NCBI GenBank assembly: GCA_001791275.1
Contig: MGEH01000024.1
Coordinates: forward strand, 11,097-75,096
DNA: 64,000 nt
Reading direction: 5' to 3'
Origin: Candidatus Uhrbacteria bacterium RIFCSPHIGHO2_12_FULL_60_25
GTDB taxonomy: Bacteria; Patescibacteriota; Patescibacteriia; 2-12-FULL-60-25
Shown here one piece after another: positions 177 through 57,219 of the stretch. Positions within the stretch are counted from its first letter, which is position 1, and every line of letters begins with the position of its first letter. The position numbers were made by a program, and so were the translations under genes. The notes under the pieces are model-generated. The model saw nothing but the letters and a program-made list of their open reading frames with translations. It made no database searches and was not told where the DNA came from.

Positions 177-1346
177 TTACCATACAACGATAAATTTCAG
201 CACTGCGAAATACGTCTCCATCAACGGATTCGCGACCTTCCGCATGAACGGACTCTCCACGTCCTGATACGCGATTGCAGACACGAACCGTTTTAAGATC
301 TCGCGGTCCGAGCGTTTACGCAGGCTCCGCGTCTTGCGTCTCGTCGAGACAATGTAGCGCCACGTGGACGGCTTGAAGAACCAGGCCGTGGCGCGGCCCT
401 TCTCCTTGATCCAGCCGCCCTTGATCGCAAAGAGCCACGTGGCGATTTCAATCACGAACATCGCGGGCAACGTCAGAATGATTGTCCCGAGGCGATAATT
501 CATCAGAAAGACGGCCCAGCGGTTTCGCTCCATCCAGTACCACTTCTTCACCGAGCGTGAAAATTCGTAGCGGTGACGCAGGGTGCTCTTGGGCGCGAGC
601 AGGTTGTCGTGCCCCGCGATCATCATGCGCCAGCCCAGATCCAGGTCTTCGTGGTACGCGAAAAGCGTCTCGTCGAGCAGGCCGACCTCGCGGAGGACCG
701 AGTTGCGATAGAGGACGCCGGCACCGGACGCGTACGCGATCGGTTGGACGTCTCCCGGCGCTTCTGACACGGGTTGTTTGTACCCACGGCAGTAGCCGAA
801 CGCGGCGAAGTGGATGTCGTTCCCCGTGGAGTTGATCGTTGTCGGATCCTGCATGAGCACGAGGAGCGACTGGACAGAGCCCGCGTTCGGATGCGCTTCC
901 GCGACCGCGACCGCTTCGCGCAGCGACCCCTCTTCAAATGCCGCGTCGTGATTCAGAAGATAGCAGTAATCGGCCGTGGACGTCCGCATGACCAGATTGT
1001 TCCCTGCCGCGAAGCCCGTGTTCGACCCGGGTTCGTGCAACACGACCTTCGGCAGGTTTTCAGGAGGATTTGCGAGCACGGACTTCACGTAGTCCGCCGA
1101 CCCGTCGGACGACGCGTTGTCCACGATGTGGACCGTGAAGGCGTCGCGCGGGTAGTCCACGACGCACAACCCGCGCACGAGCTCTTCCAAATATGGCCGT
1201 GCGTTCCACGTGACCACGATGACGTCGACCACGGGAACCGGGAACCGGAAACCGGAAACCGGAAAATTGGAACAGGGTGGTGTTCCCCGTTCCCCGTTCC
1301 CGGTTCCCGGTTCCCGGTTCCCGGTTCCCTGTTCCCGGTCATTCAT
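177..1346 (-). CDS. Family 2 glycosyltransferase (GT-A fold) with hydrophobic C-terminal segments
   Basis: 389-aa ORF. VVDVIVVTWNARPYL...HIVDNASSDGS is a typical GT2 N-terminus. The first ~38 codons are encoded by the heptamer hairpin; an alternative GTG start lies at 1230-1232. Confidence 0.9.
   Translation of the reverse strand: MNDREQGTGNREPGTGNGERGTPPCSNFPVSGFRFPVPVVDVIVVTWNARPYLEELVRGLCVVDYPRDAFTVHIVDNASSDGSADYVKSVLANPPENLPKVVLHEPGSNTGFAAGNNLVMRTSTADYCYLLNHDAAFEEGSLREAVAVAEAHPNAGSVQSLLVLMQDPTTINSTGNDIHFAAFGYCRGYKQPVSEAPGDVQPIAYASGAGVLYRNSVLREVGLLDETLFAYHEDLDLGWRMMIAGHDNLLAPKSTLRHRYEFSRSVKKWYWMERNRWAVFLMNYRLGTIILTLPAMFVIEIATWLFAIKGGWIKEKGRATAWFFKPSTWRYIVSTRRKTRSLRKRSDREILKRFVSAIAYQDVESPFMRKVANPLMETYFAVLKFIVVW
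1233..1336. repeat. Inverted heptamer arrays (GGGAACC-type x6, spacer, GGTTCCC-type x8) forming a long hairpin
   Basis: Read directly. 1233-1274 = GGGAACC GGGAACC GGAAACC GGAAACC GGAAAAT TGGAACA. 1281-1336 = TGTTCCC CGTTCCC CGTTCCC GGTTCCC x4 TGTTCCC. Confidence 0.9.
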
Positions 1347-6602: not shown

Positions 6603-6663
6603 AATTTCTAATTTCTAATTTCTATAATAGAGTTTAGAAATTAGTCATTAGAAATTAGAAATT
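6603..6663. promoter_or_regulatory. AT-rich palindrome of heptamer arrays (TTTCTAA x3 / TTAGAAA x4) in a divergent promoter region
   Basis: 6605-6625 = TTTCTAA TTTCTAA TTTCTAT. 6634-6661 = TTAGAAA TTAGTCA TTAGAAA TTAGAAA. Lies between the divergent starts at 6599 (-) and 6717 (+). Confidence 0.5.
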
Positions 6664-9038: not shown

Positions 9039-9965
9039 TTAGAGCCTACTCGCGGGCGCCGGATCTGTCGAGGGAACGGGACGCGCGGTCACGATCATCA
9101 TGTCGCGCGGGTTGATGCGGACGGACAGGCGTTGCAGGAGCGGCCGTTCGGTGAGCCGTTTCAACCACTTCCATTCGAACCCGAGCCACCCCATGATGAA
9201 GTGGATCACGTAGGCGATCGTAAAATCCTTGCCGCGCCACTCGACGGAAACGAACTCAAACCCAGAGTCCGCCAGGCACGCCTTCATGCTCTGGAGCGAG
9301 AAGTAATGGATGTGCTGCGGAGGCGCCAAGAGCGTCCACCATCGGCCCGTGATGCGCGCGAACCAGGAGTCGCTCTGGGGCGTTGCAAACATGATGAGCC
9401 CGTCTGATGACATGATGCGTCGTATCACGCGGAAGAACTCGAACGGATCGCGCAGGTGCTCCACCACATCCCAAAGCGTGATCGCATCCACGCCCCGGAA
9501 CCGCTCGGCGTTCGCTTCGAGCGTCCCCTGCGCCACGTCCAACCCGCGCGCCCTCATGACCGTGGCCGCGTGCTCGGACAGTTCCACGCCGGACGCCTTC
9601 CAACCGCGTTCCTCTGTCATGCGCATGAAAAAACCCGTAGCCGCGCCCACATCGAGCAACCAACCCTTGGACGGTTTCCGCGCTTCGATGCGCTCGAGGA
9701 AATACGTGAAATCCGTTGCCACGCTCTGCTTGTCGCGATCGTAGTTCACGTACCCGTGCTTGGACGTATCGCCCTGGAAATACCCTTTGTCGTAGAACGC
9801 GATCAGCTCCGCCTCGGTCGGGATCGGGTGGATCCACAGGTGCTTGCACGTCCCGCACCGGTACAGCGACCAACGGTCTTTCGTGAACGCGAAACGGCCC
9901 GTGTGTCCGCTCTTCCCGGACGGACATGCGAGCTCGTTCGGACGCGATGCTACGGCTTCTTCCAT
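9039..9965 (-). CDS. Class I SAM-dependent methyltransferase with an N-terminal Cys-rich (zinc-ribbon-like) segment
   Basis: 308 aa. CPSGKSGH...YRCGTCKH followed by the LLDVGAATGFF SAM motif. Confidence 0.8.
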   Translation of the reverse strand: MEEAVASRPNELACPSGKSGHTGRFAFTKDRWSLYRCGTCKHLWIHPIPTEAELIAFYDKGYFQGDTSKHGYVNYDRDKQSVATDFTYFLERIEARKPSKGWLLDVGAATGFFMRMTEERGWKASGVELSEHAATVMRARGLDVAQGTLEANAERFRGVDAITLWDVVEHLRDPFEFFRVIRRIMSSDGLIMFATPQSDSWFARITGRWWTLLAPPQHIHYFSLQSMKACLADSGFEFVSVEWRGKDFTIAYVIHFIMGWLGFEWKWLKRLTERPLLQRLSVRINPRDMMIVTARPVPSTDPAPASRL

Positions 9966-11887
9966 ACGGAAACGTTATTGCCAACATGTTCTTCGACGTA
10001 CCCGGCCGGCAACTGCCAGAACGCACTCTGCGGATCCGGAATGATGACCCACGGACAGAACGCGCGGAAGGCGTACTTGTCCAACGTATGACGATTGATC
10101 GCCGCTTCGACGCGCTTCCAGTTCGCGTCGATCACGGCCTGACGGCACCCGATGAGTTCATTCGCCCGAGCCTGGTCGAACCCCATGCGTCGCAACACGT
10201 CCGCATAGAACGCATTGTGCGAATACTTGCTCCCTTCGGCGCACGGGATCGTTCGGTAGTGACCCGTGTAGAACCGGAAGAACCAGAGTTCGCCTGACGA
10301 CGTGACGCTGTATGCGCCCACCAGCGTCTCCAGATCGCGAATGACCTGCTCGCTTGAGTCGGGGTACGACAACGTGGGTTCAGCCGGATTCACGCGGCGT
10401 CCCGTATGGGCGGCGTAGAACGACGCGGATCCGGGATCGGCGCACATCATGTCTCCGGGCGGGACGTGAGACCTGATCCAGTCCACGACCGGGACGTTCA
10501 CCATGACCTCCGGGACCTTGGGAAAGTCCCGCAGGATGACGGGGATGCTTGCTCCGACCCCGATGGCTGCCATGGGCAGCGTGATGAGGATCGTGACGAC
10601 GGTCGTGTTCAGATGTGACGAGGTATGTCTCGACCGCCAGACCACGAGCCAGGCCGCCACGGCGAGCGCGAACCAGTGCGTCAGGTGGATCACGTACGAG
10701 TCGAACTTCCAGATATTCGATCGAAGCGGCTGCTGGAGCACGTAGACGAAGAACAACGTGGCGCCCGCGGCGACGACAAGCGGAAGTTGTTTGATGAGTG
10801 CATTTCCCAGTCCCCGTTTCCCAGTCCCCGTTTCCCAGTCCCCAGTCCCCAGACCCCAGACCGTGGCGAGCGAAAGCCATGCGAGCACGGCCACGGGCGC
10901 GATGAAGTGGTCGCTGTAGATATGGATGCCGGTGAACGGCGTGTTGAACCACAGGAAGAACAGGACGATCCATCCCCATGCCGCGAACGTGAGTCGATCG
11001 CGTGCGGCTGGCGACGCGGCGCGGCGCGCCAGTGCGAACAGGAACGCGATCCATGCGAGCATGGCAAGCACCGTGTTCGCGAAGAATGGCACGCGCGCGA
11101 ACACCATCCCGTTCCGCTCGTACATGCCCACGAGCCCTGCGCGCGCCGGATCGAGGAACCACTCTGCAAGCGGACCGGCGAGCGTCCACACGGTGATGAC
11201 GGAGAGCGCGACCAGGACCGGCAAGGTCCACGTGCGCAGCCGGACGAACCGCGCGGCCCAGATCGTGGCGAGCCAGAGTCCCGCGGGCATGAGGAACCAC
11301 GGGTAGAGGGTCGTGAGAAGGAGCGACGCGACGGACAGACCGATGGACCGGACGTATCGGTCTTTTTTCAGGGCTTCGTACGCCGGAAGGACGAGCGTAA
11401 GCCCGAGCATGCAAAACGGCAGGTACCACGAGTACATCCCGGGCCGGAGACTCAAGGGCAGGAGCGACAACCAGAGGCCCGCGATGACAGCGCGTGACGG
11501 CCAGCGCGCGATGCCTGACCACTGCTCCACGCACCAGGCGCCGATCCAGAGCGTGAGCGTGATCGCGATCCATCGGCTCACGATCCAGAGCTCCGGGACG
11601 CTCGCCCATGAGCCGACGAGCTTCCAGAGCGCCACGATGATAAGCGACCCGAACCATTTCAGGTGTCCGCCGTACGCGAGCCCGTTCGCCGCGGCGCCCA
11701 TCCAGTGCAGGTAGACGTACGTATCGAAGACCCCCGGAGTGACGGCGGGCACACGCCACCAACGTTCCACGTGCGCGGACACGTTCCAAATCCAATACGG
11801 CACCCAGGAGACAAGCCCTGTCAGGACCGGCACGCCGACCCACCATGCGCGCTCTCCATATCGCTTGAGGTCAAATGAGCGGGACAT
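9950..11887 (-). CDS. Large polytopic membrane protein, paralogue 1 of an unnamed family (GT-C-like candidate)
   Basis: 645 aa with many hydrophobic segments. Shares the VFDTYVYL loop motif, PFTGIHIYSDHF and four C-terminal Cys positions with the ORFs at 15274-17133 and 45625-47697. Confidence 0.85.
   Translation of the reverse strand: MSRSFDLKRYGERAWWVGVPVLTGLVSWVPYWIWNVSAHVERWWRVPAVTPGVFDTYVYLHWMGAAANGLAYGGHLKWFGSLIIVALWKLVGSWASVPELWIVSRWIAITLTLWIGAWCVEQWSGIARWPSRAVIAGLWLSLLPLSLRPGMYSWYLPFCMLGLTLVLPAYEALKKDRYVRSIGLSVASLLLTTLYPWFLMPAGLWLATIWAARFVRLRTWTLPVLVALSVITVWTLAGPLAEWFLDPARAGLVGMYERNGMVFARVPFFANTVLAMLAWIAFLFALARRAASPAARDRLTFAAWGWIVLFFLWFNTPFTGIHIYSDHFIAPVAVLAWLSLATVWGLGTGDWETGTGKRGLGNALIKQLPLVVAAGATLFFVYVLQQPLRSNIWKFDSYVIHLTHWFALAVAAWLVVWRSRHTSSHLNTTVVTILITLPMAAIGVGASIPVILRDFPKVPEVMVNVPVVDWIRSHVPPGDMMCADPGSASFYAAHTGRRVNPAEPTLSYPDSSEQVIRDLETLVGAYSVTSSGELWFFRFYTGHYRTIPCAEGSKYSHNAFYADVLRRMGFDQARANELIGCRQAVIDANWKRVEAAINRHTLDKYAFRAFCPWVIIPDPQSAFWQLPAGYVEEHVGNNVSVWKKP
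10803..10865. repeat. Nine tandem heptamers (TTTCCCA GTCCCCG ... GACCCCA) in-frame within the membrane-protein gene
   Basis: Read directly. The coding strand is TGGGGTC TGGGGAC TGGGGAC TGGGAAA CGGGGAC TGGGAAA CGGGGAC TGGGAAA, encoding GLGTGDWETGTGKRGLGN. Confidence 0.85.
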
Positions 11888-15273: not shown

Positions 15274-17133
15274 CTACTTTGCGCCGTATACGACGGCGGT
15301 CGCGTCTTCGTAGAGCTTGACGTAGGACAATGGGATTCGCCAGTCGTCCGAGAATCGTTCGTGAATTACGATCCGTTGGCAAAAATCGGAATCATTCGCG
15401 GTCTGTTGTGCCCATTGCAACTTCATTCGAGCGATCACTGCTGCACGAATCGCATTGGCCCGATCCTCGTCGCACCCGCTCAAAAATATACGCTGCGTCG
15501 CAGTAAATGGAATGAGGTTCAGGATCTGACGAGCGGTCGTTGACAAACAAGCGGCATCATGTGCAATGAGGATCATGTCGTCCATATACGAACGCTCAAT
15601 ACCTGCGTCTGGGTTCAAATACTTTGAGAACTCGACGAGGCGATCCTGAAGAACGCTCGTTGGAACGTGGTCGAACATCATCACCATCGCCGGACTGAAC
15701 GAAGCCCCGGTCGTTGAAGAGAGGTCGTCACCTGTTAGATAATCTGCACACCAACGACGCAAATGTACCTTCGTATCTTGGAGCATCCAGCTCCTTACAC
15801 CTATCAACTCAGAAGATAGCTGCGTTCGCTCCATTGCATACGCACCAACTGAAATAATACCTATCAGTGCATACACGAACGCTATGAAACACCAGATCAA
15901 ATTCAAACGAAGACGTGTGATTCCAGATAGGAGTCCGAGTGCAAGAAACGTCCAGCTTCCGATATGGATCAGGAGCGAGGAAAAATCCATGAATCGATAC
16001 ACGCCAATTGCATATTTAGAGAGGATATACATTGTAAAAGCGTATGCGACCATAGCGAGCACAAAAAGAATCGATCGCCAGCGGTTGAAAATTGACTCAC
16101 GTGCATATATTGGCCACGCCACAACTGAGAAAATAGAAAGGTGCCACACGGGGTAAATAAAATGATCGGATAATATCGAGATACCGGTCAGGAGCGATTG
16201 ATTCCAAAGAATTGCGACCGCTACCCACGCTGCGAGCATGACCTCTGTAGAAATACACCTCTGTGGAGATATGCGCCTCTGAAAAGATTGTGACCTTCGA
16301 AGTATCGTCCAAGCGATAATCCACAATATAATGATGAGTATGCTATTACTGAGGACAGGTAGGTGAGAAAATCCAAGTGCACCACGTTCCATAAGCTCAT
16401 AAGTCGAAGAACGTAAAAAAGTTTCCCACCAATCATGACGCATCAAGATAAGTCCTTCAGCAATTACGAAACCGACCGCGAGGATGATGATCGCCGACAA
16501 CGGCTCAAGAAATCGTTTCAAGAACAGCAGGACGCACGTAACAAGGATGACTGAAACATACCAGGGATAAACCGCCGAAATGAATAGTGCCACACCCCAT
16601 AACGCCGTGCCGCGTATTCTCTTTCCTATGGCAAGATCATATTCTCCGAGAACTACGAGGAGAAATCCGAGATAAAAAAATGGCACATACCACGAGGAAC
16701 CGCCTGGCCGAAGAATAAGAATTGATTGAACGGAAAGAAATGCGAGGAGACTATAAAATCTTGTTCCAACAATTGAGAGATCGGTCAATTTTTGTAACAA
16801 AATTGCAAGAAACCAAACGCTCAGGATTGCGGAGACGATAATACCAAGCACATAAAGTTCCGATAGTGATACATACGGCCAGATCAAACGTGCGACATAT
16901 TCCATCGGACGAAAATGAATTGGAAGAATGGTGGAACCATTAAATAGATCCTTTGACAAAATTTGCAAATAAAATGTCTGGTCAAAAAAAACTTTTGGTA
17001 AGGCCGAAATTCTTAGCCCCTTCGGTACTGAAAGGGCACCGAGCCCGAACCAATAGCTAGCACCGATCGCTACAGGCAGTACCCCATACCATACCCATGG
17101 CATCGAAAGCCACTTTTTCAATGTGAGTTTCAT
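15274..17133 (-). CDS. Large polytopic membrane protein, paralogue 2 of the unnamed family (lower-GC copy)
   Basis: 619 aa. FFDQTFYL loop motif, LLTGISILSDHF, and C-terminal Cys positions conserved with the 9950 and 45625 proteins. ATGA overlap with the upstream GT2. Confidence 0.85.
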   Translation of the reverse strand: MKLTLKKWLSMPWVWYGVLPVAIGASYWFGLGALSVPKGLRISALPKVFFDQTFYLQILSKDLFNGSTILPIHFRPMEYVARLIWPYVSLSELYVLGIIVSAILSVWFLAILLQKLTDLSIVGTRFYSLLAFLSVQSILILRPGGSSWYVPFFYLGFLLVVLGEYDLAIGKRIRGTALWGVALFISAVYPWYVSVILVTCVLLFLKRFLEPLSAIIILAVGFVIAEGLILMRHDWWETFLRSSTYELMERGALGFSHLPVLSNSILIIILWIIAWTILRRSQSFQRRISPQRCISTEVMLAAWVAVAILWNQSLLTGISILSDHFIYPVWHLSIFSVVAWPIYARESIFNRWRSILFVLAMVAYAFTMYILSKYAIGVYRFMDFSSLLIHIGSWTFLALGLLSGITRLRLNLIWCFIAFVYALIGIISVGAYAMERTQLSSELIGVRSWMLQDTKVHLRRWCADYLTGDDLSSTTGASFSPAMVMMFDHVPTSVLQDRLVEFSKYLNPDAGIERSYMDDMILIAHDAACLSTTARQILNLIPFTATQRIFLSGCDEDRANAIRAAVIARMKLQWAQQTANDSDFCQRIVIHERFSDDWRIPLSYVKLYEDATAVVYGAK

Positions 17134-17849
17134 TGATGCTTAGAAAATTTCTTATGGAACTGAAGCATCGCGCGACTCACACTCACCAAATTTTCCCAAC
17201 GCAATGCGGTGGACCGTCCTTGTCGTGGAAGGATACGCATAGGGACTTCTACAAACGATGCGCCTTCTCGAAGGAGCGTGAGTAGTATCTCTGCGGCATA
17301 TGCGAAACTTGGAGTTTCTGGCAATGCGCGACGAAGTTGATCGATCCGATATACATTAATCCCATTGAAGTAGCGGACACGACGATGGTACATGACATTT
17401 AATATTATCGTGAATACTCTCGAGATGAGACGTCGAAGCAACGACCGTACTTCAGGATTTTCCGTATACGTAACGACCATGTCGGCGGAACCAATCGCAC
17501 AAATGACGCGCGCGACAGATATACTGTCAATTTCATTATCTCCGGGAACCATGACCACATGATTCTTGGTCGCCGCCAAAACGGCGTTTCGATATTTTTC
17601 TCCGAGAAGCTGGTATGTAGGACTGTGAAGTACTCGAATGCGTGCGTCTGATGCCGCAAGCTCCTGTGCGATGAGCCGAGTTCGATCTTCACGCCCATCA
17701 CGATCCACGCACGTCACAATGATCATTTCATAATCCTGAATCTCCGCTTTCGTAAGAGCGCTGCGTACTCCCTGTATCGTCGCTTCAATATTACGCTCCT
17801 CATTCAATGCAGGGATGATGATACTCAAGGATATGTTCATGGCCTGCAA
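17130..17849 (-). CDS. GT2 glycosyltransferase, DPM1/GtrB-like
   Basis: 239 aa. LSIIIPALNEERNIE...VPGDNEID. Confidence 0.85.
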   Translation of the reverse strand: MQAMNISLSIIIPALNEERNIEATIQGVRSALTKAEIQDYEMIIVTCVDRDGREDRTRLIAQELAASDARIRVLHSPTYQLLGEKYRNAVLAATKNHVVMVPGDNEIDSISVARVICAIGSADMVVTYTENPEVRSLLRRLISRVFTIILNVMYHRRVRYFNGINVYRIDQLRRALPETPSFAYAAEILLTLLREGASFVEVPMRILPRQGRSTALRWENLVSVSRAMLQFHKKFSKHQ

Positions 17850-17892
17850 AGACTACAGAAGTGAGTCGCGATTGACAAGCAATATCGATCAC

Positions 17893-18396
17893 CTATCGAT
17901 CACGCTCAAGCCCAAGTGATCGAAAAAGATCTGAAGAATGGATGAGGAGCGACGGAGTGAAGATGACACGACCACCAATTGATTCCATCACTCGGATATC
18001 CTCATGAATTCCATGAGACGGATCCGCGAGCATCGGCAGATGGTCTTCCCCTTTCGTATAGAGATTCGGTCGAATGGTCCGCATGAGCGACCAGGGACCT
18101 TCTTCCTCATTTAACACTACGTAGTCAACGCTCTCGAGCGCCGCGACCCACGTGAGTCGTTGAATCTCTGAAAACCATGGCCGTCCAGGACCCTTCCTCA
18201 CATAGGCATCCGCGATCACGCCAACGTATACGAAGTCACCACGTTTTTTTGCTTCCTCGAAATAGTTCACGTGTCCCAGGTGGACCAAATCAAAAACTCC
18301 ATGGCAGTGGACGATGGTCAGGCCTTCTGCTTGAAGTGCTCGCACGATCCGTGCGAGCTCATCGGGTGTTTTAATTTTCTCAGTCGTGAAACGCAT
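17893..18396 (-). CDS. Cytidylyltransferase-fold nucleotidyltransferase (heptose-1-phosphate adenylyltransferase, HldC/RfaE domain II-like)
   Basis: 167 aa. HCHGVFDLVHLGHVNYFEEAKK (GxFDxxHxGH motif). Confidence 0.8.
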   Translation of the reverse strand: MRFTTEKIKTPDELARIVRALQAEGLTIVHCHGVFDLVHLGHVNYFEEAKKRGDFVYVGVIADAYVRKGPGRPWFSEIQRLTWVAALESVDYVVLNEEEGPWSLMRTIRPNLYTKGEDHLPMLADPSHGIHEDIRVMESIGGRVIFTPSLLIHSSDLFRSLGLERDR

Positions 18397-18398
18397 GA

Positions 18399-18983
18399 TC
18401 AGGAGGCTTCACCATAGATGGTATGGTCCAGCATGGCATGCAGAATGGTTTCGTGGCCAAGTTCGGCATGCCCATACGTCGTCGTGTTGAGATACACGTT
18501 GATATCTCCAAGTTTTCGCAGCGGATTATCCGCTCCGAACGCAGTAAGGGTGAGGACAAAGCAACCCAGACGTTTCGCCTCCGCGACCGCATTCACGATA
18601 TTCTTGGATCTCCCTGAACTGGAGATAGCCACGACCACATCGTGCGGCGCAGCGAACATCGCGATCGGCCTCGTGAAGACGTCCGGGTACCCGAAATCAT
18701 TCGCCGATCCGGTCAATAGCGATGCATCATTGAAGCACATCGCTCGCAACTTTCCATTCTTCCAGTAATCGTATGATTGATGGCTCGCGATCGCCGCGCT
18801 CCCGCCATTACCAAGAAAGATGATCTTGCCGCCTGCGGCATGCGATTCACGAAATTTCGCGATCGTCTGTTCGAGACACTGGATCAGATCCAATTCGCAC
18901 CCTGACGCGTCCGTCGCCAAAGCTCCCTGAACGCAGGATGCCAGATCTGTCGTGTACCGTTTGAAGTAGTCGCTCAAATTCAT
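18399..18983 (-). CDS. gmhA: SIS-domain sugar-phosphate isomerase (phosphoheptose isomerase-like)
   Basis: Start taken at MNLSDYF (18983), since the upstream stop is at 18988. IIFLGNGGSAAIASH SIS motif. About 194 aa. The gene context supports GmhA. Confidence 0.7.
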   Translation of the reverse strand: MNLSDYFKRYTTDLASCVQGALATDASGCELDLIQCLEQTIAKFRESHAAGGKIIFLGNGGSAAIASHQSYDYWKNGKLRAMCFNDASLLTGSANDFGYPDVFTRPIAMFAAPHDVVVAISSSGRSKNIVNAVAEAKRLGCFVLTLTAFGADNPLRKLGDINVYLNTTTYGHAELGHETILHAMLDHTIYGEAS

Positions 18984-40386: not shown

Positions 40387-41634
40387 TCATCGATCCGGCT
40401 TGTACAGCGTAAAAAAAATATTAAACGCCTCTGCAACGTACTGAATATCAGCTTCAGTCATCCCTTGATGAGAGCCTATATAAAACCCATTTCGCTGAAT
40501 CCAATCAGCAACTGGGTAGGACGAACTAAGATCGCCAAAGCGATCACGATAAAAAGGTTGTGAAATAAGTGGAAGCATGTCACGTGTTTCAATACCTCTT
40601 GCCTCTAGATGGTTAACCAAATCAACTTTCAAATATTGATCATGAAGAATGACGATCGGAAACATCATAAAAGCATGATCAGTATCAGTTGGATGGTATG
40701 GTAATTGGAGTTCTGTTGCGTACTTACGCAGTACTTCAAGTAGTCGCAAAGCTGTTCGTTTGTGACCATCAATAATTTCAGCCTTTCTGTCCAGCTGCGC
40801 GACACCAAGCGCTCCCTCTAGCTCCGTTAGGCGATAGCTGTAACCGAGTCGTACAAAATTAAATCTCCGTTGAACGACTTCTGCCAAATGATCAGTATCT
40901 ACGGCACTTTGTCGATCATCCATGCTGAAATAAATTGAGTCCCGACCATGATTCGCGAGACTACGTAGAATGATGGCGAGATTCTTATCTTTCGTTAGGA
41001 CGATACCACCTACACCAGTTACTAGCAGATGACACATATACGTCGAGAAGCAGGCAATGTCGCCGAAGGACCCTACTGACCGACCACGATAACGTGTGAA
41101 CATCGTTTCGCATGAATCCTCGACGATACGTAATTTGTGTTTCTTTGCAATCGCTTCGATCGGCTCCATATTACATGGTTGTCCAAAAAGGTGAACGGGT
41201 ACGATTGCGCGCGTTCGATCCGTAATGTGTGCTTCTATTTTACTTGGATCGATGTTGTATGTTCGGCGGTCGACATCAACGAAAACTGGGGTAAGACCAA
41301 GCTCAATCAGCATGTTCGATGTTGCCACGAAAGTCACGGCCGGAACGATGACTTCATCACCCATTTTCCATCCATCCAATTCTTTTAATGCAGCAAACGC
41401 TATATGGAGTGCACTAGTCCCGCTGTTCACAGCTACCCCAAAAGAAACATCATGATCTCGTGCAAAACGATGTTCAAATTCTTGCAGGAAAGGACCATAG
41501 GATAAACGGCCACTGTCAAGAACCCGTAGTATATTTCTACGCTCGCGTTCACCGATGTCCAAGCAGCCAAGGCCGATTCGTATTTGTTTAATGTCGGGTG
41601 CCATACCAATAGTTCTTTGGAATACTGCATTCAA
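40387..41634 (-). CDS. DegT-family PLP/PMP enzyme with His in place of the Schiff-base Lys (ColD/E1-type 3-dehydratase-like)
   Basis: 415-aa ORF (alternative start MAPDIK). FGDIACFSTYMCHLLVTGVGG aligns to FGDMGCFSFYPTKNLGALGEGG of the 35336 gene, with K replaced by H. Visibly AT-rich. Confidence 0.8.
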   Translation of the reverse strand: MNAVFQRTIGMAPDIKQIRIGLGCLDIGERERRNILRVLDSGRLSYGPFLQEFEHRFARDHDVSFGVAVNSGTSALHIAFAALKELDGWKMGDEVIVPAVTFVATSNMLIELGLTPVFVDVDRRTYNIDPSKIEAHITDRTRAIVPVHLFGQPCNMEPIEAIAKKHKLRIVEDSCETMFTRYRGRSVGSFGDIACFSTYMCHLLVTGVGGIVLTKDKNLAIILRSLANHGRDSIYFSMDDRQSAVDTDHLAEVVQRRFNFVRLGYSYRLTELEGALGVAQLDRKAEIIDGHKRTALRLLEVLRKYATELQLPYHPTDTDHAFMMFPIVILHDQYLKVDLVNHLEARGIETRDMLPLISQPFYRDRFGDLSSSYPVADWIQRNGFYIGSHQGMTEADIQYVAEAFNIFFTLYKPDR

Positions 41635-41758
41635 ACAGATCGACGATTAGGATAGTGTACTGTCAATCGTCATTTTTTTGCAAGGAATCAAGTTTCAAGA
41701 CAAATAACCCTTGCTATTGCAGTCGTTTCCCGATACAATTCACTCAATATTAATCGAT

Positions 41759-41968
41759 ATGGCATCACGTCGTAAGAGGGTGTTGGTCGTTGGAGCCAAT
41801 GGATTCATCGGTCGAGCACTCACATCACGACTCGTCTCCCTCGGTTATCATGTTGTGGCTGCGTCTCATTCACAATGTCATGGAATCTCTGCTTCGCAAA
41901 TACGAACTGGCGACCTACGCGACGCACGCTACTGTCGGCGTATTACGAGGGATGTTGACATTATTTAA
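41759..41968 (+). pseudogene. Truncated remnant of an NAD-dependent epimerase/dehydratase (Rossmann N-terminus only)
   Basis: MASRRKRVLVVGANGFIGRALTSRLVSLGYHVV... stops after 69 codons and abuts the 3' end of the convergent AT-rich membrane gene. Confidence 0.55.
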
Positions 41969-41977
41969 ATAACAGAC

Positions 41978-43672
41978 TCAATACTTTGCATATCGTAAGA
42001 AATATGGGTAGCCCAAATTTTTTGACTTCACCGTTCCATAAAGAGTGGTCACATTCTGCGGTGACCCATTTCGAACATCACATGAAGATGCATTAATGCT
42101 GATGCAAGAGTCTACATCTTCATTTTCAGTACACGATCTGGAACAATCCGATGTTACACGCCAGATGTGTTCGATGTGCGTTTGAGGTATAGGGAGCACA
42201 TCAAAAGATGAATTTTGATAATATACGATCGGACGGAAATCTATGAAGCGATCAATCATATCCGGATGATCAATTAAAAACTGATTTCGCCGTAACGCTT
42301 TCGTATTGACATCAAGAAATTGAAAAGAGGACCTGTTCAGAGGCAGTTCGAGGTGCTTAGCGTCTATCACGATCAATTGATCAGGGGTATTGTATTTCTC
42401 GTAAAAAAACTGGTAGACCTGCATTTCTGATGATGGTGACCAAAATAACAACATGACTTTTAGTAAAATGTATATTGCAAAAATAGCAAATGGTGGAATG
42501 AACAGGGTGAGAATACTGTTGGATAAAGTTGTAAAAAGAAATAAAAAACTCATCGTGATTGCAAGACTAAAAATAATGGCATATCTCGGATATCCAATAA
42601 GTCCCGCAATTACAACATCAGTCGTGAATACAGCTACTGGATAGAGTAGACATATCAAGAGGACGATCAGCTTCCTTCGTCTTGAACCTAGTTGATGAGA
42701 GTATGGTAGTTGGACAAGATAAAATGCGAAAATAAAGAGGAAAGAAACGACAAGTACTGGGTTGCTCTCCCATAAGGTCTGGAACAGCCATACAAATCTT
42801 TTCAGCCAGTCAATTGAACCATCCGGAAACAAGTAGTCCGTCCCATTCAGACTCGTACTGGTTGCAACAGACGACGTTAAATTAAGAATTCGTTGATAGA
42901 AACTTAATTGAGTAAGTATTATCAACAAAAAAATCCCGATGTGGCATTTTAGGGCTTGTACAGTTTCAGATATTGAAATATGACCAAGCAACATTGCGAA
43001 TACCACCCAGAGAACCACATGGATCATCATTGGTACTTGTAGTATTGCAAGGAATGCCAGCCATAACAGTAATGAAATATATACTCGCTTCTCAATAAGG
43101 AGATTTTTTGTTCGCGTAATGAAGTATTCCTGAAAAAGCACAAGCCCTCCAGCGGTGAGCATGAATAATGAACCAAGAAGCCAGACTTTGCCGGTATGTA
43201 TAAGCAATACGAATAACGGATTACTGAAAAGAACAGAAAGAAATAGTGCAGCAAGTAACCCAAGTTGTTTCAATCGATTACGCGTGTATAAAAATCTAAA
43301 AAAAAGGAACAGCAACAGTAGGACACTGAGACCATTAACAACTCGTACCGTATGTAGAAGATCACCATAGTGAACTGCAAAATATCCCATTAAGATTATA
43401 GGTGGATAAAAAAAGGTTAAGTCATATACAAATCTCGTGAGGACAGCAACCGTCACGAGGTATGTTTGCACTCCACCGTAATATGCTCCGCCCACCGTAA
43501 AATCCCATCCGGGGAGCGTATGATTACTCAATGCTGATAATGCACTGCTCAAAAAATACGATTCATCAGAAATTACGGCTGTATTATCCCCAAAGGGATT
43601 CGGATTAAGAAATAATGGTGATATAAGCAACGTTACTAGGATTGGAAGTGCAGATCGAAATTTCAAAAGCAT
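41978..43672 (-). CDS. Polytopic membrane protein, GT-C-like candidate (very AT-rich)
   Basis: 564 aa with many hydrophobic segments. Early loop motif ISDESYFLSSA (DExY-like). Cys-rich C-terminal soluble region. Confidence 0.8.
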   Translation of the reverse strand: MLLKFRSALPILVTLLISPLFLNPNPFGDNTAVISDESYFLSSALSALSNHTLPGWDFTVGGAYYGGVQTYLVTVAVLTRFVYDLTFFYPPIILMGYFAVHYGDLLHTVRVVNGLSVLLLLFLFFRFLYTRNRLKQLGLLAALFLSVLFSNPLFVLLIHTGKVWLLGSLFMLTAGGLVLFQEYFITRTKNLLIEKRVYISLLLWLAFLAILQVPMMIHVVLWVVFAMLLGHISISETVQALKCHIGIFLLIILTQLSFYQRILNLTSSVATSTSLNGTDYLFPDGSIDWLKRFVWLFQTLWESNPVLVVSFLFIFAFYLVQLPYSHQLGSRRRKLIVLLICLLYPVAVFTTDVVIAGLIGYPRYAIIFSLAITMSFLFLFTTLSNSILTLFIPPFAIFAIYILLKVMLLFWSPSSEMQVYQFFYEKYNTPDQLIVIDAKHLELPLNRSSFQFLDVNTKALRRNQFLIDHPDMIDRFIDFRPIVYYQNSSFDVLPIPQTHIEHIWRVTSDCSRSCTENEDVDSCISINASSCDVRNGSPQNVTTLYGTVKSKNLGYPYFLRYAKY

Positions 43673-43699
43673 AAGTGAATGAAAGATAACAATTTCCTA

Positions 43700-44407
43700 T
43701 CACGTTTTCCAATAGAGATCTTTAAGCAAGACAAAAATAAACTTTATTCCCATTATGGTCTTTAATTTTGATTTTCCCCACGCTCTCGCCTTTTCCCGAC
43801 TCGGAATTTCTACCAATCGACACTGCTTCTTTAAACATTTCACAACCATTTCCTGTTCAATGCAAAAATCATTCGACTTCAATCCTAAACTATGGAATGT
43901 CGATTTTTTTACGGCTCTAAAACTATACAGAATATCACTCAATTGAATTTTGAAACGTTGATTTACCAAAACAGTTAAGAAATCAGATCCGGCTGAACGG
44001 ATAATCCCTGTTAGACTCATATCTAGATCGTGACTTCCGCCAAGTCGCCTTGAAGTAATCACCATGTCCGCGGTCTCATCGATCAGCGGCTTGATGAGCT
44101 GTGGGATATCGCTGGCTTCATGCGATCCATCGGCATCAAAAAATACAATGATATTACCTGAGGCCGCTTCAACACCCATACGGACTGCATCCCCTCTGCC
44201 GAGACCATGATCGAGTAAGTATTTCGCTCCCTGCTCCAAGGTAATGTATCGGGTGTTGTCTTTCGAGTGGCCATCAACAACGATGACTTCGTCTGCATAA
44301 GGTTTAACCGATTCAATTATTTTTTTTATTCCTGCTCCTTCGTCTTTTGTTGGAATGACGATTGATATCCCGATATGATCGCTCATATTGCCGATGCTTC
44401 TAGTCAC
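43700..44407 (-). CDS. GT2 glycosyltransferase, DPM1/GtrB-like
   Basis: 235 aa. ISIVIPTKDEGAGIKKII...VVDGHSKDNT...FDADGSH. Confidence 0.85.
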   Translation of the reverse strand: MTRSIGNMSDHIGISIVIPTKDEGAGIKKIIESVKPYADEVIVVDGHSKDNTRYITLEQGAKYLLDHGLGRGDAVRMGVEAASGNIIVFFDADGSHEASDIPQLIKPLIDETADMVITSRRLGGSHDLDMSLTGIIRSAGSDFLTVLVNQRFKIQLSDILYSFRAVKKSTFHSLGLKSNDFCIEQEMVVKCLKKQCRLVEIPSREKARAWGKSKLKTIMGIKFIFVLLKDLYWKT

Positions 44408-52368: not shown

Positions 52369-53516
52369 ACTCTGTGAACGCGACGTTGAAGCGACGCAAC
52401 CCATTCAAGGATTCTCCTGGAACGCTCCGACCAGGTGTATCGCGCGCTTAACGCGAGCGCAGCCGCCGCCTTGGCGCGCGCTTCATCCGGACGATCCATG
52501 GCGCGCACGATCTGGAGCGCGAGCGTGTTGACATCACCGGGCAAGGCGAAAAACGCCGACCGTTCATCCACGATCTCGCGGACCGAGGGCAGGTCCGTCA
52601 CGACCATCGGCACGCCGCTCATGAGATACTCAAAGAGCTTTAGCGGAGACATGTACAACGCGTAATGTTCCGTATGCGGAAACGGCATGAGGAGCAGGTC
52701 TGCGGCGGCATAGAACCGCTTCAGATCCGCTTGCGGAACATGCCCGCGCAGTTCAGTCCCGTCCTGGACACGGGGACGGTACCGCGCGATCTCTTCCGGC
52801 GTCCCGCCGACGGCGATCAGCCGGAGCTTCCGTTGTTTGCCGCGAAGATGCGCGACAGCCACAATCGCCTCATCCAGACCCTTCGGCATGCCCATGGTGA
52901 GAAACTTCCCGGTATAGAGACAGACGAATTCGCCATCCGGAATGCCGAGCGCGCGCCGTGCCGAAACGCGATCAGGCGCGCCTGCAAACAACGCTGGATC
53001 GACCGCGTCTGGTTCCACGAGGATCCGGTCGGACGGAAACCCGAACGACGAAAGGCGTTCTTTTGACGCGCGCGTGAGTGTCACGATCGCATCCATCGTG
53101 CGCATGGCGCGACGGCCGAACCACGACGAGTGGACACGGTGCGATTCCCATACGCGAAGCCCTGGAACGTCGCCGAATGAAAAAACGTACGGTTCGCGGC
53201 TGTACACGAGGTCGGGTCGGTATGTGAGCAGCCGGGGACGAAGCGCTCGGATGAACGTCGCCGTCTGAATCCAAAATCCAAGCGCGCCGAGCCAATGCCA
53301 ACGGAGCGCGTCGGCGCACGGCACGCGCTCGAACACGAATGTTTTCGGCTTGTCGTAATAGGCAAACGGATCATCCGCGACCACGGGCGTGCGATCCGTA
53401 ACATACAGGCGCACCTCATGACCGAGCGCCGCAAACGCCGAACACACGGCCATCACCTGGTCGCTCTGCGCTTTTTCCGACGGGAAACGGCTGTTTGCGA
53501 TGTAGGCGATTTTCAT
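52365..53516 (-). CDS. GT4 glycosyltransferase
   Basis: 383 aa. MKIAYIANSRFPSEKA, with a C-terminal SPLKLFEYLMSGVPMVVTD region. Confidence 0.88.
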   Translation of the reverse strand: MKIAYIANSRFPSEKAQSDQVMAVCSAFAALGHEVRLYVTDRTPVVADDPFAYYDKPKTFVFERVPCADALRWHWLGALGFWIQTATFIRALRPRLLTYRPDLVYSREPYVFSFGDVPGLRVWESHRVHSSWFGRRAMRTMDAIVTLTRASKERLSSFGFPSDRILVEPDAVDPALFAGAPDRVSARRALGIPDGEFVCLYTGKFLTMGMPKGLDEAIVAVAHLRGKQRKLRLIAVGGTPEEIARYRPRVQDGTELRGHVPQADLKRFYAAADLLLMPFPHTEHYALYMSPLKLFEYLMSGVPMVVTDLPSVREIVDERSAFFALPGDVNTLALQIVRAMDRPDEARAKAAAALALSARYTWSERSRRILEWVASLQRRVHRV

Positions 53517-56059
53517 ATCTTTTTCTTACGTCGCAATCGGTCCCAAATGACGACGAGCGCCATCGCCGCCAGAATCGCGAGCAGATTATCCAACGGAATC
53601 CGGTACTTCGTGTACCCAGCGATGATGGAATGCAACGCGGAATACACCGCAAAGACGATCAGGATCGGGACGATAACCCCGAACATCTTCCGTCGCTTCG
53701 CGAGGACGAGTCCGGCGAGCGTCAAGACTTCAAGTGCGAAGACGTACCCAGCGAGCGACCAGCGCGCCGCCATGATTTTCCAGCCCGCGTCCGCGAATGA
53801 CCATTGCGCGCCGTATTTCAACCCAGGCTGAAGCATCGGTGACCAGAACCCGGCGACCTTCAACGCCTGCAACTTCCATCCTTCAGACCAGTAGTTTTGC
53901 TTCAACCAATCCATCCCAACCTTCGTCCAGTAGTCGTTGAACTCCGGCTCGCTCATCGCTCCAGTATCCTTGCACGATGTCCGACTGTCACCAGGTTCAT
54001 GAGGATGCCACTCGGTGAACAGTCGTGACGGTTTGAGCCAACCCCGTTCGCGAAGCGCCGCTTCGACTTCCGGCAGCATCACGTACCGCACCTCCTGCGG
54101 GTTGTCCGGATTGAACACGCGCTCGCTCGTCTGCACTTCCTGCGGGAATCCGAGGACCGTGAGACCGTACATATTTTCGCTGTTCGCCTTGGCCAAGGCA
54201 TGTCCCAAATCCGTAGTCAGCGGCACGAACCGGTGGAACGCCTGCCAGTTCCGGTACGTCCACGGCGCAATGAGCGCGGCCGAGACGATCCCCATGATCG
54301 CGATCGCGAGCACTGCGCGCTTCACGTCCTTTCGCCAGCGCCACAAAAGCCATGCGGACAAAAGGACGGTCGCGGGCAGAATCGTCCCTTGGACGTACGC
54401 CAACGCCGCGATCCAAACGCCGGTCCCGACGGCCCATCGCATTCGCTTCGTCTCTTCGAGACGCAGCAGACTGAAGAGCAGCGTCACGAGGAACAAGCCG
54501 GACAGCACCGTGTGGTAGTACTGCGTGTAGTGATAGAAGGTGTACGGATGGATGGCGGTCAGAACCGCCGCGACGAGACCGACTCGACGGTCTTTCGTGA
54601 GCGCCCAGCCCAGGCGGTAGACCATGTACGTGAGAAGGACGGCCAGAGCGTTTTGGACGACTGCCTGCGCAAAGAAATTCGCAAACCCGAACAACCCGTA
54701 CACTCCCGTCAAGAAAAACAAAAAGCCGGGCGAACGGTACGCCGACACGCACCCGACGTCCTGCACGAACGAGTAGCCGTATCCCAGGAACCAATTCTGC
54801 ACGAGGGTGAAGAATCCCCACTCGCGATTCGCACCAAGCGTCTTCCAGAAAAGCGCCACGGACAGGCCTCGCACGAGAACCGCGAATCCGATCACCCCCG
54901 CCGTCCACATCCATACACGACGGCCGGGAACCGGGAACGGGGAACCGAGAACCGTCCATGCAGCGTGCTGCCGACGGACGAGCTCCCCAGCATCAGGAAA
55001 CTCCTTCGATCTCTCATACGCATTCTTCACCATCCACTCGCGGCGCTCTGACTCCGACAGTTGCTCGCGAATCGCCGCGACGAGCCCCGCGATATCATTA
55101 GGTTGGACGACACGACCATCTATTTGCGGCCTGAAAAACGATCCCACGCACCCCACATCCGTCGTCACGATCGGCACGCGCGCGGCCATTGCTTCCACGA
55201 TCGTCCTCCCCCACCCTTCATATCGGGAAGACAGAACGAACAGGTCAGCACCGCGCCACAGGTCTTCCTGTGAAGACCAAGGCTCGATCGTGACGATATC
55301 ACTCAGCTTGAGATCATGAATAAGCCGTTCGACGGCTCGCCGGAGCGGTCCTGCGCCGACAAGTCGCGCTCGAAAATCGACACCTTGCTCACGAAGCGAC
55401 GCGAGCGCACGGACGAGCACATCCAGCCCCTTCTGCTTCACGAACCGGCACGGCGCCACGATCGTCGGCGCCTTGGACCAAGGCTTTGGTTCTCGCGAGA
55501 GAAGACCCGTCAGGTTCTGCGCAACCGGAATAACGCTGATGCGGTCGGCCGCGACGTGACATCGCCGGACCAGATGATCGCGTACCCGCTCACTCACGAC
55601 CCTCACGCCGTCCGCGCGGCGCAGGAAGAACTTTCCCCACCCGGCCATGACTTCGTGAAAAAACGGCAATTCGCGCTCCCACGCGCCCGAATAGTAGTCC
55701 GCGTGCTCCTGGACCTCGTACGGAACGTCGAGCAGCCGTGAGACGAGAAAAGCGACGAAACCGGCCGCGAACGGATCTTGCGCCGTGATGATCGGCGTCT
55801 CGCCGGTCTTGCGCGCTCGCCTGACCGCCCGCATGACGGCGACGGTTGCTTTCCACACGCGGACGATTGCATTGCCGCGAAAACCGTACACGCACGTCTG
55901 CGAATCTCCGCGCTCCGCGTTCTGATGCGCGTTCGCGAGCAACACCGCGGTCACGCGGACGTCGTCTGACGCGAGAGCCGCGAGACGGCCCGAAGATTCT
56001 GACGCCGGATCCAGGAATCCGCGCTCGTACGACAGCATGATGATGCGGAGCGGCTTCAT
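53513..56059 (-). CDS. Fusion: GT4 glycosyltransferase (N, ~385 aa) + GT-C/PMT_2-like polytopic membrane domain (C, ~460 aa)
   Basis: 848 aa. N-terminal part has YEGWGRTIVEAMAARVPIVTTDVG. The C-terminal part has many TM segments. The domain junction is encoded by the heptamer tract (SPFPVPGR). Confidence 0.88.
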   Translation of the reverse strand: MKPLRIIMLSYERGFLDPASESSGRLAALASDDVRVTAVLLANAHQNAERGDSQTCVYGFRGNAIVRVWKATVAVMRAVRRARKTGETPIITAQDPFAAGFVAFLVSRLLDVPYEVQEHADYYSGAWERELPFFHEVMAGWGKFFLRRADGVRVVSERVRDHLVRRCHVAADRISVIPVAQNLTGLLSREPKPWSKAPTIVAPCRFVKQKGLDVLVRALASLREQGVDFRARLVGAGPLRRAVERLIHDLKLSDIVTIEPWSSQEDLWRGADLFVLSSRYEGWGRTIVEAMAARVPIVTTDVGCVGSFFRPQIDGRVVQPNDIAGLVAAIREQLSESERREWMVKNAYERSKEFPDAGELVRRQHAAWTVLGSPFPVPGRRVWMWTAGVIGFAVLVRGLSVALFWKTLGANREWGFFTLVQNWFLGYGYSFVQDVGCVSAYRSPGFLFFLTGVYGLFGFANFFAQAVVQNALAVLLTYMVYRLGWALTKDRRVGLVAAVLTAIHPYTFYHYTQYYHTVLSGLFLVTLLFSLLRLEETKRMRWAVGTGVWIAALAYVQGTILPATVLLSAWLLWRWRKDVKRAVLAIAIMGIVSAALIAPWTYRNWQAFHRFVPLTTDLGHALAKANSENMYGLTVLGFPQEVQTSERVFNPDNPQEVRYVMLPEVEAALRERGWLKPSRLFTEWHPHEPGDSRTSCKDTGAMSEPEFNDYWTKVGMDWLKQNYWSEGWKLQALKVAGFWSPMLQPGLKYGAQWSFADAGWKIMAARWSLAGYVFALEVLTLAGLVLAKRRKMFGVIVPILIVFAVYSALHSIIAGYTKYRIPLDNLLAILAAMALVVIWDRLRRKKKI
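54926..54953. repeat. Four GGGAACC-type heptamers at the GT4/GT-C domain junction
   Basis: GGGAACC GGGAACG GGGAACC GAGAACC read directly on the plus strand. The gene is on the minus strand, so the coding strand reads GGTTCCC-type units. Confidence 0.75.
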
Positions 56060-57219
56060 AGATTCAGGGCTTCCAGCGTCTTCTTCACCATGGTCTCAAA
56101 TCGCAACGCGTCCGGCACGGCCGGCGTCGTCCGTTCAGGCCATGGTCCTGACAGGGCGGTACGCCATGCGCCGACGTCACCATACGGCAAGACGCGCACG
56201 AGCTCGCCCAAGAGCTCGCGCGTCTCCGGGTTCCCGCCCTTGTCGCTCACGAAGCTCGGCAGACCCACGGACGCGGCCTCGGGCACCACGTGCGGGAAGC
56301 CTTCGTATCCGGACGGAAGGACGAACAGGTCGGCCGCGCGGTACCAGTCCGCGAGCGCCGTGCGGTCGAGTCTGCCGACAAACCGCACTCGGTCACCGAC
56401 GCCCCGTTCAGACGCGAGTTTTTTCCAGTCGTCCAACGATGGCCCGTCGCCTGCGACTACTAAGACGACGTCGCTGGGCAGGTCGGACATGATCCCGATG
56501 ATAAAATCCACGCCTTTCCAAGGCACGCATCGCACCGCCGTGAGCATCACGCGCTTACCCTCGATGTTGAGTCGCATCGTCGAAGAGGGCAGCGGTTCTG
56601 CCGCATTGTAAATGACGCGAATGCGTCCTTCCGGCACGCCCCATGCCTTCACGACAGACGCGAGATACCGGCTCGGCACGATCATGCGGATCGCCCGTTT
56701 CGCCGTCCATCGCTCGATCCATTCCAAGACGCGGACCGTCCCCACATGCCGATGCGTCAAAAATTCATCCAACAATTCTTTTCGTCCGGTTCCCGGTTCC
56801 CCGTTCCCGGTTCCCCGTTCCCGGTTCCCGGCTTCCCGTTCCCCGTTCCCGGTTCCCTGATACATCTCCCATGCATAATCCCCAACCACCTTCATCACCG
56901 TGGATTTGCCAGCGAGCATCGCACCGATCGTGCCTGGCAGACCCTCCGAGACAGGCCCTTGAAGATAAACGACGTCAACGAGCCGTGCTCTGCGACGTAC
57001 GGTATCCGCAAACTTCCAATATCGTGCCAAAATGTTGCGATTGCGTCCGATCCGTTCAACCGGATATCCGTCCACGTGCTCAATCCCGTCTTTCTCGCCG
57101 TATGCGACCACCTGCACTTCGTGCTCTGAAGACAACGCTGCCCGAGCAAAGGCCCGGGTGTATGTGGCAGGTCCGCCTGCGTCCGGCGGATAGATGCCAG
57201 TTGCAAGAAGTATCTTCAT
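56056..57219 (-). CDS. GT4 glycosyltransferase carrying a repeat-encoded insertion
   Basis: 387 aa. MKILLATGIYPPDAGGPA and YEGFPHVVPEAASVGLPSFVSD. Contains an internal QGTGNGEREAGNRERGTGNGEPGTGRK segment. Confidence 0.9.
   Translation of the reverse strand: MKILLATGIYPPDAGGPATYTRAFARAALSSEHEVQVVAYGEKDGIEHVDGYPVERIGRNRNILARYWKFADTVRRRARLVDVVYLQGPVSEGLPGTIGAMLAGKSTVMKVVGDYAWEMYQGTGNGEREAGNRERGTGNGEPGTGRKELLDEFLTHRHVGTVRVLEWIERWTAKRAIRMIVPSRYLASVVKAWGVPEGRIRVIYNAAEPLPSSTMRLNIEGKRVMLTAVRCVPWKGVDFIIGIMSDLPSDVVLVVAGDGPSLDDWKKLASERGVGDRVRFVGRLDRTALADWYRAADLFVLPSGYEGFPHVVPEAASVGLPSFVSDKGGNPETRELLGELVRVLPYGDVGAWRTALSGPWPERTTPAVPDALRFETMVKKTLEALNL
56788..56857. repeat. Ten tandem GGTTCCC-type heptamers in-frame within the GT4 gene
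   Basis: GGTTCCC GGTTCCC CGTTCCC GGTTCCC CGTTCCC GGTTCCC GGCTTCC CGTTCCC CGTTCCC GGTTCCC, read directly. Confidence 0.9.

Follow-up and report, generated by a model that had tools for sequence, protein, structure and literature searches.

G-rich heptamer repeats are known from Xanthomonas, where GGGAATC occupies ~186 loci, and from Nostoc, where the unit is GGGGA(C/T)T (Rehm et al. 2015, PLoS One, PMC4692102). In both, four units are preferred, 70–75 convergent inverted pairs are formed, and ~90% of the repeats are intergenic—with 7–11% being intragenic (Rehm et al. 2015, PMC4692102). The GGGNNNN class forms G-quadruplexes in vitro, its function is unknown, and phase variation has been deemed unlikely for it; an idea cited in the same study has the heptamer reflect the length of DNA that a polymerase holds in its active site (Rehm et al. 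2015, PMC4692102). Here, we analyze a stretch of 64,000 nucleotides (nt) from Candidatus Uhrbacteria bacterium RIFCSPHIGHO2_12_FULL_60_25 (contig MGEH01000024.1, positions 11,097 to 75,096; the whole stretch is called the window in the following), in which a four-unit heptamer tract lies within the gene of a fused glycosyltransferase (GT), at the junction between its GT4 and its GT-C module. This tract is an ordinary copy of the known bacterial heptamer repeat class. Most likely, this copy of the dominant G-rich heptamer repeat of the genome passively codes for a Pro/Gly-rich linker and is tolerated because the spacer between the two domains is not constrained.

The repeats of this genome resemble the described class in several respects: a 7-nt GGGNNNN unit with a run of three to four G in tandem (here GGGAACS), dispersed copies, a preference for four units, and inverted pairs elsewhere in the genome. 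The window additionally holds a GGGGACT family (10803–10862), which is the unit of Nostoc. The cyanobacterial STRR heptamers are presumably the same as these Nostoc repeats. The tract itself is a lone array and not part of an inverted pair, and its fourth G-run is interrupted by A54948 (reading GAG), leaving three intact G3 runs; the motif of four intact G-tracts is present in two other arrays of the window, at 56786–56857 and 1282–1339. There are also differences. The described class is found mostly at gene boundaries, between co-oriented open reading frames (ORFs), and only a minority lies in genes, whereas two of the three GGGAACS loci seen here are translated. The host is a member of the Patescibacteria (candidate phyla radiation, CPR) with a small genome, its relatives use many units without G-runs, and arrays recur at one orthologous linker. 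A literature search found no paper describing heptamer repeats in CPR/Patescibacteria. The unit is not specific to the lineage, as (GGGAACN)4 occurs in cyanobacteria, Acidobacteriaceae, and others among the matches listed in a contig scan.

Further repeat systems share single traits with this locus. Simple sequence repeat (SSR) contingency loci are found in phase-variable glycosyltransferase genes of Haemophilus, Neisseria, and Campylobacter, and 7-bp repeats lie in the hmw promoters of H. influenzae (PMC8262952, PMC2651432). The tract is similar in that its unit is not divisible by three, it lies in a surface-glycan gene, and a change by one unit shifts the frame. SSR contingency loci, however, are long, perfect, and variable between isolates as well as within populations, and lie near the 5' end of the gene—whereas the tract is short, imperfect, invariant in contig-level data, and placed mid-gene at a domain junction. 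For Borg elements, Schoelmerich et al. (2023, PMC9879509) describe nucleotide tandem repeats of independent origins and fast evolution, which add unstructured peptide segments and are under strong selection for new intrinsically disordered regions. The independent origins, the fast evolution, and the addition of unstructured peptide to proteins by tandem repeats are what both systems have in common. Borg repeat units within ORFs are reportedly divisible by three. Unlike these, the unit described here measures 7 nt, such that the peptide is read in three phases and only frame-preserving lengths would survive. Lastly, TAACTGA direct repeats of two to six copies are found near start codons in Beggiatoaceae, cyanobacteria, and Bacteroidetes (MacGregor 2015, PMC4679880). 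They likewise are heptamer direct repeats spread genome-wide, but with one conserved unit across taxa and a proposed role in translational regulation, while the units here are genome- and locus-specific.

The junction is composed of the following features:

53513–56059, minus strand: gene of an 848-amino-acid (aa) GT4 + GT-C (PMT_2-type) fusion glycosyltransferase (ORF, Pfam, homologues)
54944–56059, minus strand: cytoplasmic GT4 module of GT-B fold, residues 1–372, last helix 357–372 (Pfam, structural model, Foldseek)
54926–54953, plus strand: heptamer tract GGGAACC GGGAACG GGGAACC GAGAACC (direct reading, Tandem Repeats Finder [TRF], pattern count)
54917–54943, minus strand: non-regular linker SPFPVPGRR, residues 373–381 (dip of the predicted local distance difference test [pLDDT] in the model)
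53516–54916, minus strand: membrane GT-C module, residues 382–848, first transmembrane helix 382–408 (Pfam, structural model)

The letters of the tract are exactly those given in the original prediction, and TRF agrees, reporting period 7 with 4.4 copies, 87% matches, and a score of 48 at 54924–54954. The three-unit pattern GGGAACNGGGAACNGGGAAC has 12 matches at three loci in the window, one of them starting at 54926, versus 0.00 expected from 100 dinucleotide shuffles of the window; hence, chance does not account for the tract. The repetition is imperfect, with mismatches in three of 24 lag-7 comparisons and a longest perfect repeat stretch of 15 nt. Within the gene, the tract spans nt 1107–1134 (codons 369–378) and encodes V370–P378 (VLGSPFPVP) of the fusion protein, whereby the unit is read in all three phases. 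For the gene, the G-rich strand serves as the template, and the mRNA carries the C-rich strand. Across the junction, the minus-strand ORF reads RRQHAAWTV, LGSPFPVPG, and RRVWMWTAGVIGFAVLV. An AlphaFold2 model calculated with 28 homologues (pLDDT 85.8, predicted template modeling score 0.75) shows a helix at 357–372, coil at 373–381, and a helix at 382–408, with the pLDDT going down to 68 in block 371–380. According to this model, the last GT4 helix ends within the tract-encoded peptide, which also makes up a short spacer in front of the first membrane helix; the latter is anchored by RR. The placing at the GT4/membrane-domain junction, as initially proposed, matches both the Pfam domain limits and this helix–coil–helix arrangement. 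Moreover, the plus strand of the GGGAACS unit is free of T and its minus strand is free of A—hence, no stop codon is possible in any frame of the unit, and ORFs stay open in either orientation. Copies are indeed present on both strands inside open ORFs; that the family "inserts", as the original prediction worded it, does not follow, as the copies bear no common flanks.

Pfam assigns Glyco_transf_4 (28–178), Glycos_transf_1 (195–350), and PMT_2 (443–601) to the fusion protein, the latter with 32.9 bits at a cutoff of 26.1. Foldseek matches the model best to MshA and BshA, and all top 50 matches are GT4 structures; a search of the GT-C module against PDB sequences gave no match. Hence, the GT-C assignment rests on Pfam PMT_2. 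Homologues of the fusion, with coverage up to 100%, come from the Patescibacteria group, Candidatus Uhrbacteria, and Parcubacteria, and take two forms: ~850 aa as in the window, and ~1200 aa with an extra N-terminal GT4. In the window, this extra GT4 is a separate upstream gene (56056–57219, minus strand), whose TGA overlaps with the ATG of the fusion gene by 4 nt (ATGA, 56056–56059). Triple fusions, in which the upstream GT4 is joined to GT4–GT-C, are observed in many relatives (e.g., P0104 and P0048).

Among 28 orthologues, the linker segment measures 13–35 aa and is unalignable. Even in the closest relative (82% aa identity), the linker DNA is unrelated and non-repetitive; hence, the GGGAACS tract is a recent arrival. 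Five further orthologous loci bear a linker array with another unit at the DNA level:

L133: GACCCCC, 3.4 copies
L134: ACGGACA, 3.9 copies
L135: CTCGCTC, 4.3 copies
L139/L142: GCGGCGA, 4.1 copies, and GCGCCCT, 3.9 copies
L146: CTACAAC, 2.9 copies

On the protein level, this recurrence was followed by a back-translation scan, in which each peptide is checked for whether DNA of a perfect 7-nt period could code for it. Perfect heptamer-compatible segments of 8 aa are found in 18 of 121 proteins (0.3 windows expected), and 39 of 108 homologues contain 10-aa windows with no more than two mismatches, versus four of 108 shuffled controls. Heptamer-compatible peptides are located in the linker of 20 of 96 full-length proteins and of 17 of the 39 ~850-aa forms, with six of the 17 being confirmed by their DNA; other hot spots are the GT4 inter-subdomain loop, the GT4–GT4 linker (seven cases), and the C-terminal tail. 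A conserved, non-repetitive junction in orthologues, which the original prediction had named as evidence against itself, was thus looked for, and the junction turned out to be non-conserved and often repetitive. This fits a permissive site as well as a switch. In the subclade of P0009, P0010, and P0004, the array decays via substitutions and 3-nt indels.

Heptamer arrays are by no means confined to this linker. In ~302 kb of lineage DNA, 87 non-redundant period-7 arrays were counted, which corresponds to approximately one array per 3.5 kb, and relatives bear one per 1–2 kb—such as 20 in 22.6 kb of L134 (1–22649) and 15 in 22.5 kb of L135 (1–22559). Four is the most frequent copy number (34 of 87), and 30 of the 87 measure 30–34 nt, units without G-runs included. 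Each relative genome has its own dominant unit (e.g., GCGTCGG at four L134 loci), and many of the relatives' arrays are inverted pairs, situated at gene boundaries or inside ORFs. In the more distant relatives L136 and L137, no period-7 arrays were found. The heptamer-rich relatives comprise L134, L135, L144, L151, and L164, with a copy number peak of ~4.3 (30 nt). A separate observation concerns L165, where positions 1387–1574 are a 188-nt insertion/deletion relative to L163, the two being otherwise 99% identical contigs from different metagenomes.

Seven is the only over-represented repeat period. The GGGAACS unit occurs at three loci of the window in four arrays, with one locus at a gene boundary and two—including the tract—inside ORFs (only three loci being visible). 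Besides the tract, these arrays are:

56786–56857, minus strand: ten-unit GGGAACS array with the G-rich strand coding, in the N-terminal half of the GT4 gene 56056–57219 (TRF)
1232–1265, plus strand: left arm of an inverted pair, GGGAACC/GGAAACC (TRF)
1282–1339, minus strand: right arm of this inverted pair, 8.3 units (TRF, RNA fold)

No common flanks, terminal repeats, or target duplication were found for the four arrays. The contig depth over GGGAACC arrays amounts to 40–43 times the genome depth in four samples of different abundance, and hence ~40 further GGGAACC loci are expected in the same genome. The ten-unit array contributes ~20 aa (GTGNGEREAGNRERGTGNGEPGTG), which are absent from relative L010. 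It is also the most slippage-prone tract of the locus; its length is the same in six assemblies, but Logan assemblies break inside it. The inverted pair 1232–1339 folds to a hairpin of ~45 bp (−90.6 kcal/mol, z −9.3) and fills the whole 105-nt spacer between the stop codon of a DUF2304 gene (1339) and the start of a GT2-domain gene (GTG at ~1233).

The original prediction held that a one-unit change would end the protein after the GT4 module. In silico, this applies to the loss of one unit, which leads to a stop at residue 386, but not to the gain of one, with the stop at residue 689. In the same manner, two extra units lead to a stop at 393 and the loss of two to a stop at 682. Hereby, the stops at 386 and 393 leave a complete GT4 with a short tail, and those at 682 and 689 add ~310 out-of-frame residues. 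The copy number, however, appears constant wherever it was assessed. Over both tracts of the locus, nine independent assemblies, each from another sample, show 100% identity; the contig was also assembled from Rifle-type groundwater samples, including GCA_001791145.1. Logan contigs across the tract from five runs (X1–X5; word depths 15–46) contain no indel allele, with this evidence being at the contig level; three further low-abundance runs have no contig across the tract. In total, the locus is present in 15 runs, all in the form of Logan contigs. The same linker peptide is found in cluster members from another run, and P0024 and P0029 (88% identity) have a common linker. Between L139 and L142, which represent two populations of one other orthologue, 53 substitutions but no gap were counted in 2392 nt (2.2%), and both of their linker arrays are unchanged. 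An apparent 1826-nt joint from 54956 to 56783, seen in four runs, was rejected as a deletion: it stems from a separate contig of the same genome with an inverted array pair and a 12-nt spacer.

As to whether relatives encode the two modules separately or as a fusion, the fusion is retained in the ~96 full-length homologues, of which 96 of 96 are in frame, and none of the relatives has a split at a repeat. The sole split relative, L136, has its frameshift ~50 nt upstream, in a run of T; heptamers are absent there, several further genes of that genome are split as well, and L136 was not taken as a case of switching. Other candidates for split homologues were likewise dismissed: P0038 is a gene-calling artefact with an intact ORF of 896 aa, P0099 starts at a contig end, and L137 lacks the GT-C module altogether. 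Hence, fusion and fission take place in this family at the GT4|GT4 boundary, but not at the GT4|GT-C boundary.

In the favoured reading of a passive linker-coding repeat copy, the tract is a near-consensus four-unit copy of GGGAACS in the one segment of the gene that is free of sequence and length constraint, and VLGSPFPVP would serve as a passive flexible linker. It would persist because the unit cannot encode a stop and only frame-keeping length changes would survive selection. On the level of the lineage, Uhrbacteria-like Patescibacteria would generate ~30-nt arrays, i.e., four heptamers, at high density, and selection would leave these in protein linkers, loops, and tails as well as in the spacers between genes, where inverted pairs are frequent. 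Such array generation together with selective retention would explain why the same linker is built from different heptamer arrays in many orthologues. Going by these sequences, the linker looks like a permissive site that is repeatedly rebuilt by the heptamer-generating process of the lineage. While the anatomy, the membership in the repeat family, the recurrence at the orthologous linker, and the stable copy number are shown by the sequences, we infer an origin of the tract by replication slippage or local re-expansion and the absence of a regulatory role. No internal promoter, terminator, or structured RNA was found in the tract region. Likewise, no Shine–Dalgarno-like sequence precedes codon 384, which is the nearest in-frame ATG for an independent start of the GT-C module. 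Several points weigh against this reading. The contig-level data are compatible with frameshift alleles below ~5–10% of the population. Selection of a slippage-prone tract would likewise lead to the strong accumulation of arrays that is seen at a single junction across many species. The array of P0005 is perfect, with its unit being 2 nt off the unit of its relatives, and hence arrays contract and re-expand over evolutionary time. Finally, the presence of one unit at ~40 loci implies a copying or sequence-specific process beyond local slippage.

Alternatively, small mobile elements of the type of miniature inverted-repeat transposable elements (MITEs) or repetitive extragenic palindromic (REP) sequences could have carried heptamer arrays into the gene. 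The ~40 genome loci with the GGGAACS unit in both orientations and the complete replacement of the linker DNA compared with the closest relative would be in line with such an insertion; nevertheless, it is unlikely, as the four arrays of the window have no common flanks, terminal repeats, or target duplication, array lengths vary from four to ten units, and the many unrelated units in the same architecture in relatives suggest that a process, and not one master copy, is the source. Very unlikely is a contingency locus, where slippage would reversibly truncate the enzyme to GT4 and thereby vary the surface glycan, with a slippery tract being selected at the junction. The loss of one unit does leave a clean 386-aa GT4, the gene is part of a large cluster for surface glycans, where phase-variable genes are usually found, and arrays both recur at the same junction in many orthologues and turn over in evolution. 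On the contrary, a gained unit yields a nonsense tail of 310 aa without a clean stop, there are merely four imperfect units with perfect repetition over no more than 15 nt, and the copy number is the same in the nine assemblies and in the contigs of the five covering runs. Linker arrays also stay unchanged between populations 2.2% apart in nucleotides, and none of the relatives is split at the tract. The equal frequency of heptamer arrays in intergenic spacers and other loops makes a special selection unnecessary, and phase variation was deemed unlikely for this repeat class (Rehm et al., PMC4692102). The tract shares one hallmark of contingency loci, as a one-unit change alters the product, whereas a long near-perfect tract, copy-number polymorphism (at the contig level), and OFF alleles among relatives were not found. 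A broader version of this idea has a slippage-prone array of any unit selected at the GT4/GT-C junction across many Patescibacteria, with the switch uncoupling GT-C and varying the glycan; the apparent stability would then be owed to the contig-level nature of the data. We regard this version as highly improbable.

A structure-forming regulatory element is to be doubted just as strongly. Here, a G-quadruplex of the template strand, or pairing in the mRNA with the ten-unit array 1.8 kb upstream, would act by a transcription or translation pause at the domain boundary or on mRNA stability. GGGNNNN repeats of this class form G-quadruplexes in vitro (PMC4692102), a preference for four units equals the four G-tracts that a G-quadruplex requires, and the complementary array at 56786–56857 is probably part of the same operon. 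The tract, however, holds only three intact G3 runs, with A54948 breaking the fourth, the mRNA carries the C-rich strand, and the local RNA fold is no better than that of shuffles (z −0.48). Furthermore, the orthologous linker arrays are mostly devoid of G-runs (CTCGCTC, ACGGACA, CTACAAC), and the four-unit preference is also present in units that are not G-rich—which argues against a G-quadruplex as the explanation of that preference.

The remaining heptamer arrays of the window belong to other families:

10803–10862, minus strand: second G-rich family GGGGACT/GGGAAAC, encoding the loop WGLGTGDWETGTGKRGLG of a 645-aa membrane protein (TRF)
6603–6663, no strand assigned: AT-rich heptamer inverted pair AATTTCT (3.1 copies)/TTAGAAA (4.3 copies) (TRF; RNA fold z −5)

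The multi-pass membrane protein that hosts the former array (gene 9950–11887, minus strand) has no Pfam or NCBIfam match. The AT-rich pair is intergenic, flanked by the divergently oriented genes of a subtilase and a Bac_transf sugar transferase, and its unit contains stop codons. For the inverted pair at 1232–1339, an upstream ATG at 1346 would translate the spacer as an N-terminal extension of 37 aa, and Logan contigs contain a second locus of the genome with an ATGA start followed by an array in the same way.

The fusion gene is embedded in a glycan cluster with Wzy_C, Asn-synthase-like genes, epimerases, a methyltransferase, several GT4, GT2, and a UDP-GlcNAc 2-epimerase; the cluster is preserved in synteny in L010, L011, and L133–L135, and the window is rich in glycan genes throughout. 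Two islands of low GC content (38–46% vs ~60%) at ~15300–18400 and ~40400–44400 contain GT2 genes along with genes for a DegT-type aminotransferase, a cytidylyltransferase, and two large proteins that match no family. Both islands have the appearance of variable portions of the glycan region that were gained by horizontal transfer. At L010 (3897–6587), the GT4 half of the fusion gene is of much lower GC content and more diverged than the GT-C half; the latter is 82% identical to the window, and the gene caller returned only this GT-C part. This contrast suggests recombinational replacement of one module.

The G-rich heptamer class is abundant in a lineage of Uhrbacteria-like Patescibacteria. 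In at least 17 of 39 orthologues of a conserved enzyme, the interdomain linker stems from a heptamer array, at the same position but with different units. This recurrence implies that repeats can regularly give rise to linkers and loops even if their unit length is not divisible by three. For such heptamer-encoded arrays, the back-translation scan provides a simple test on the protein level. The lineage-wide pattern merits attention: arrays of ~30 nt, of any unit and at high density, which supply proteins with linkers, loops, and tails.

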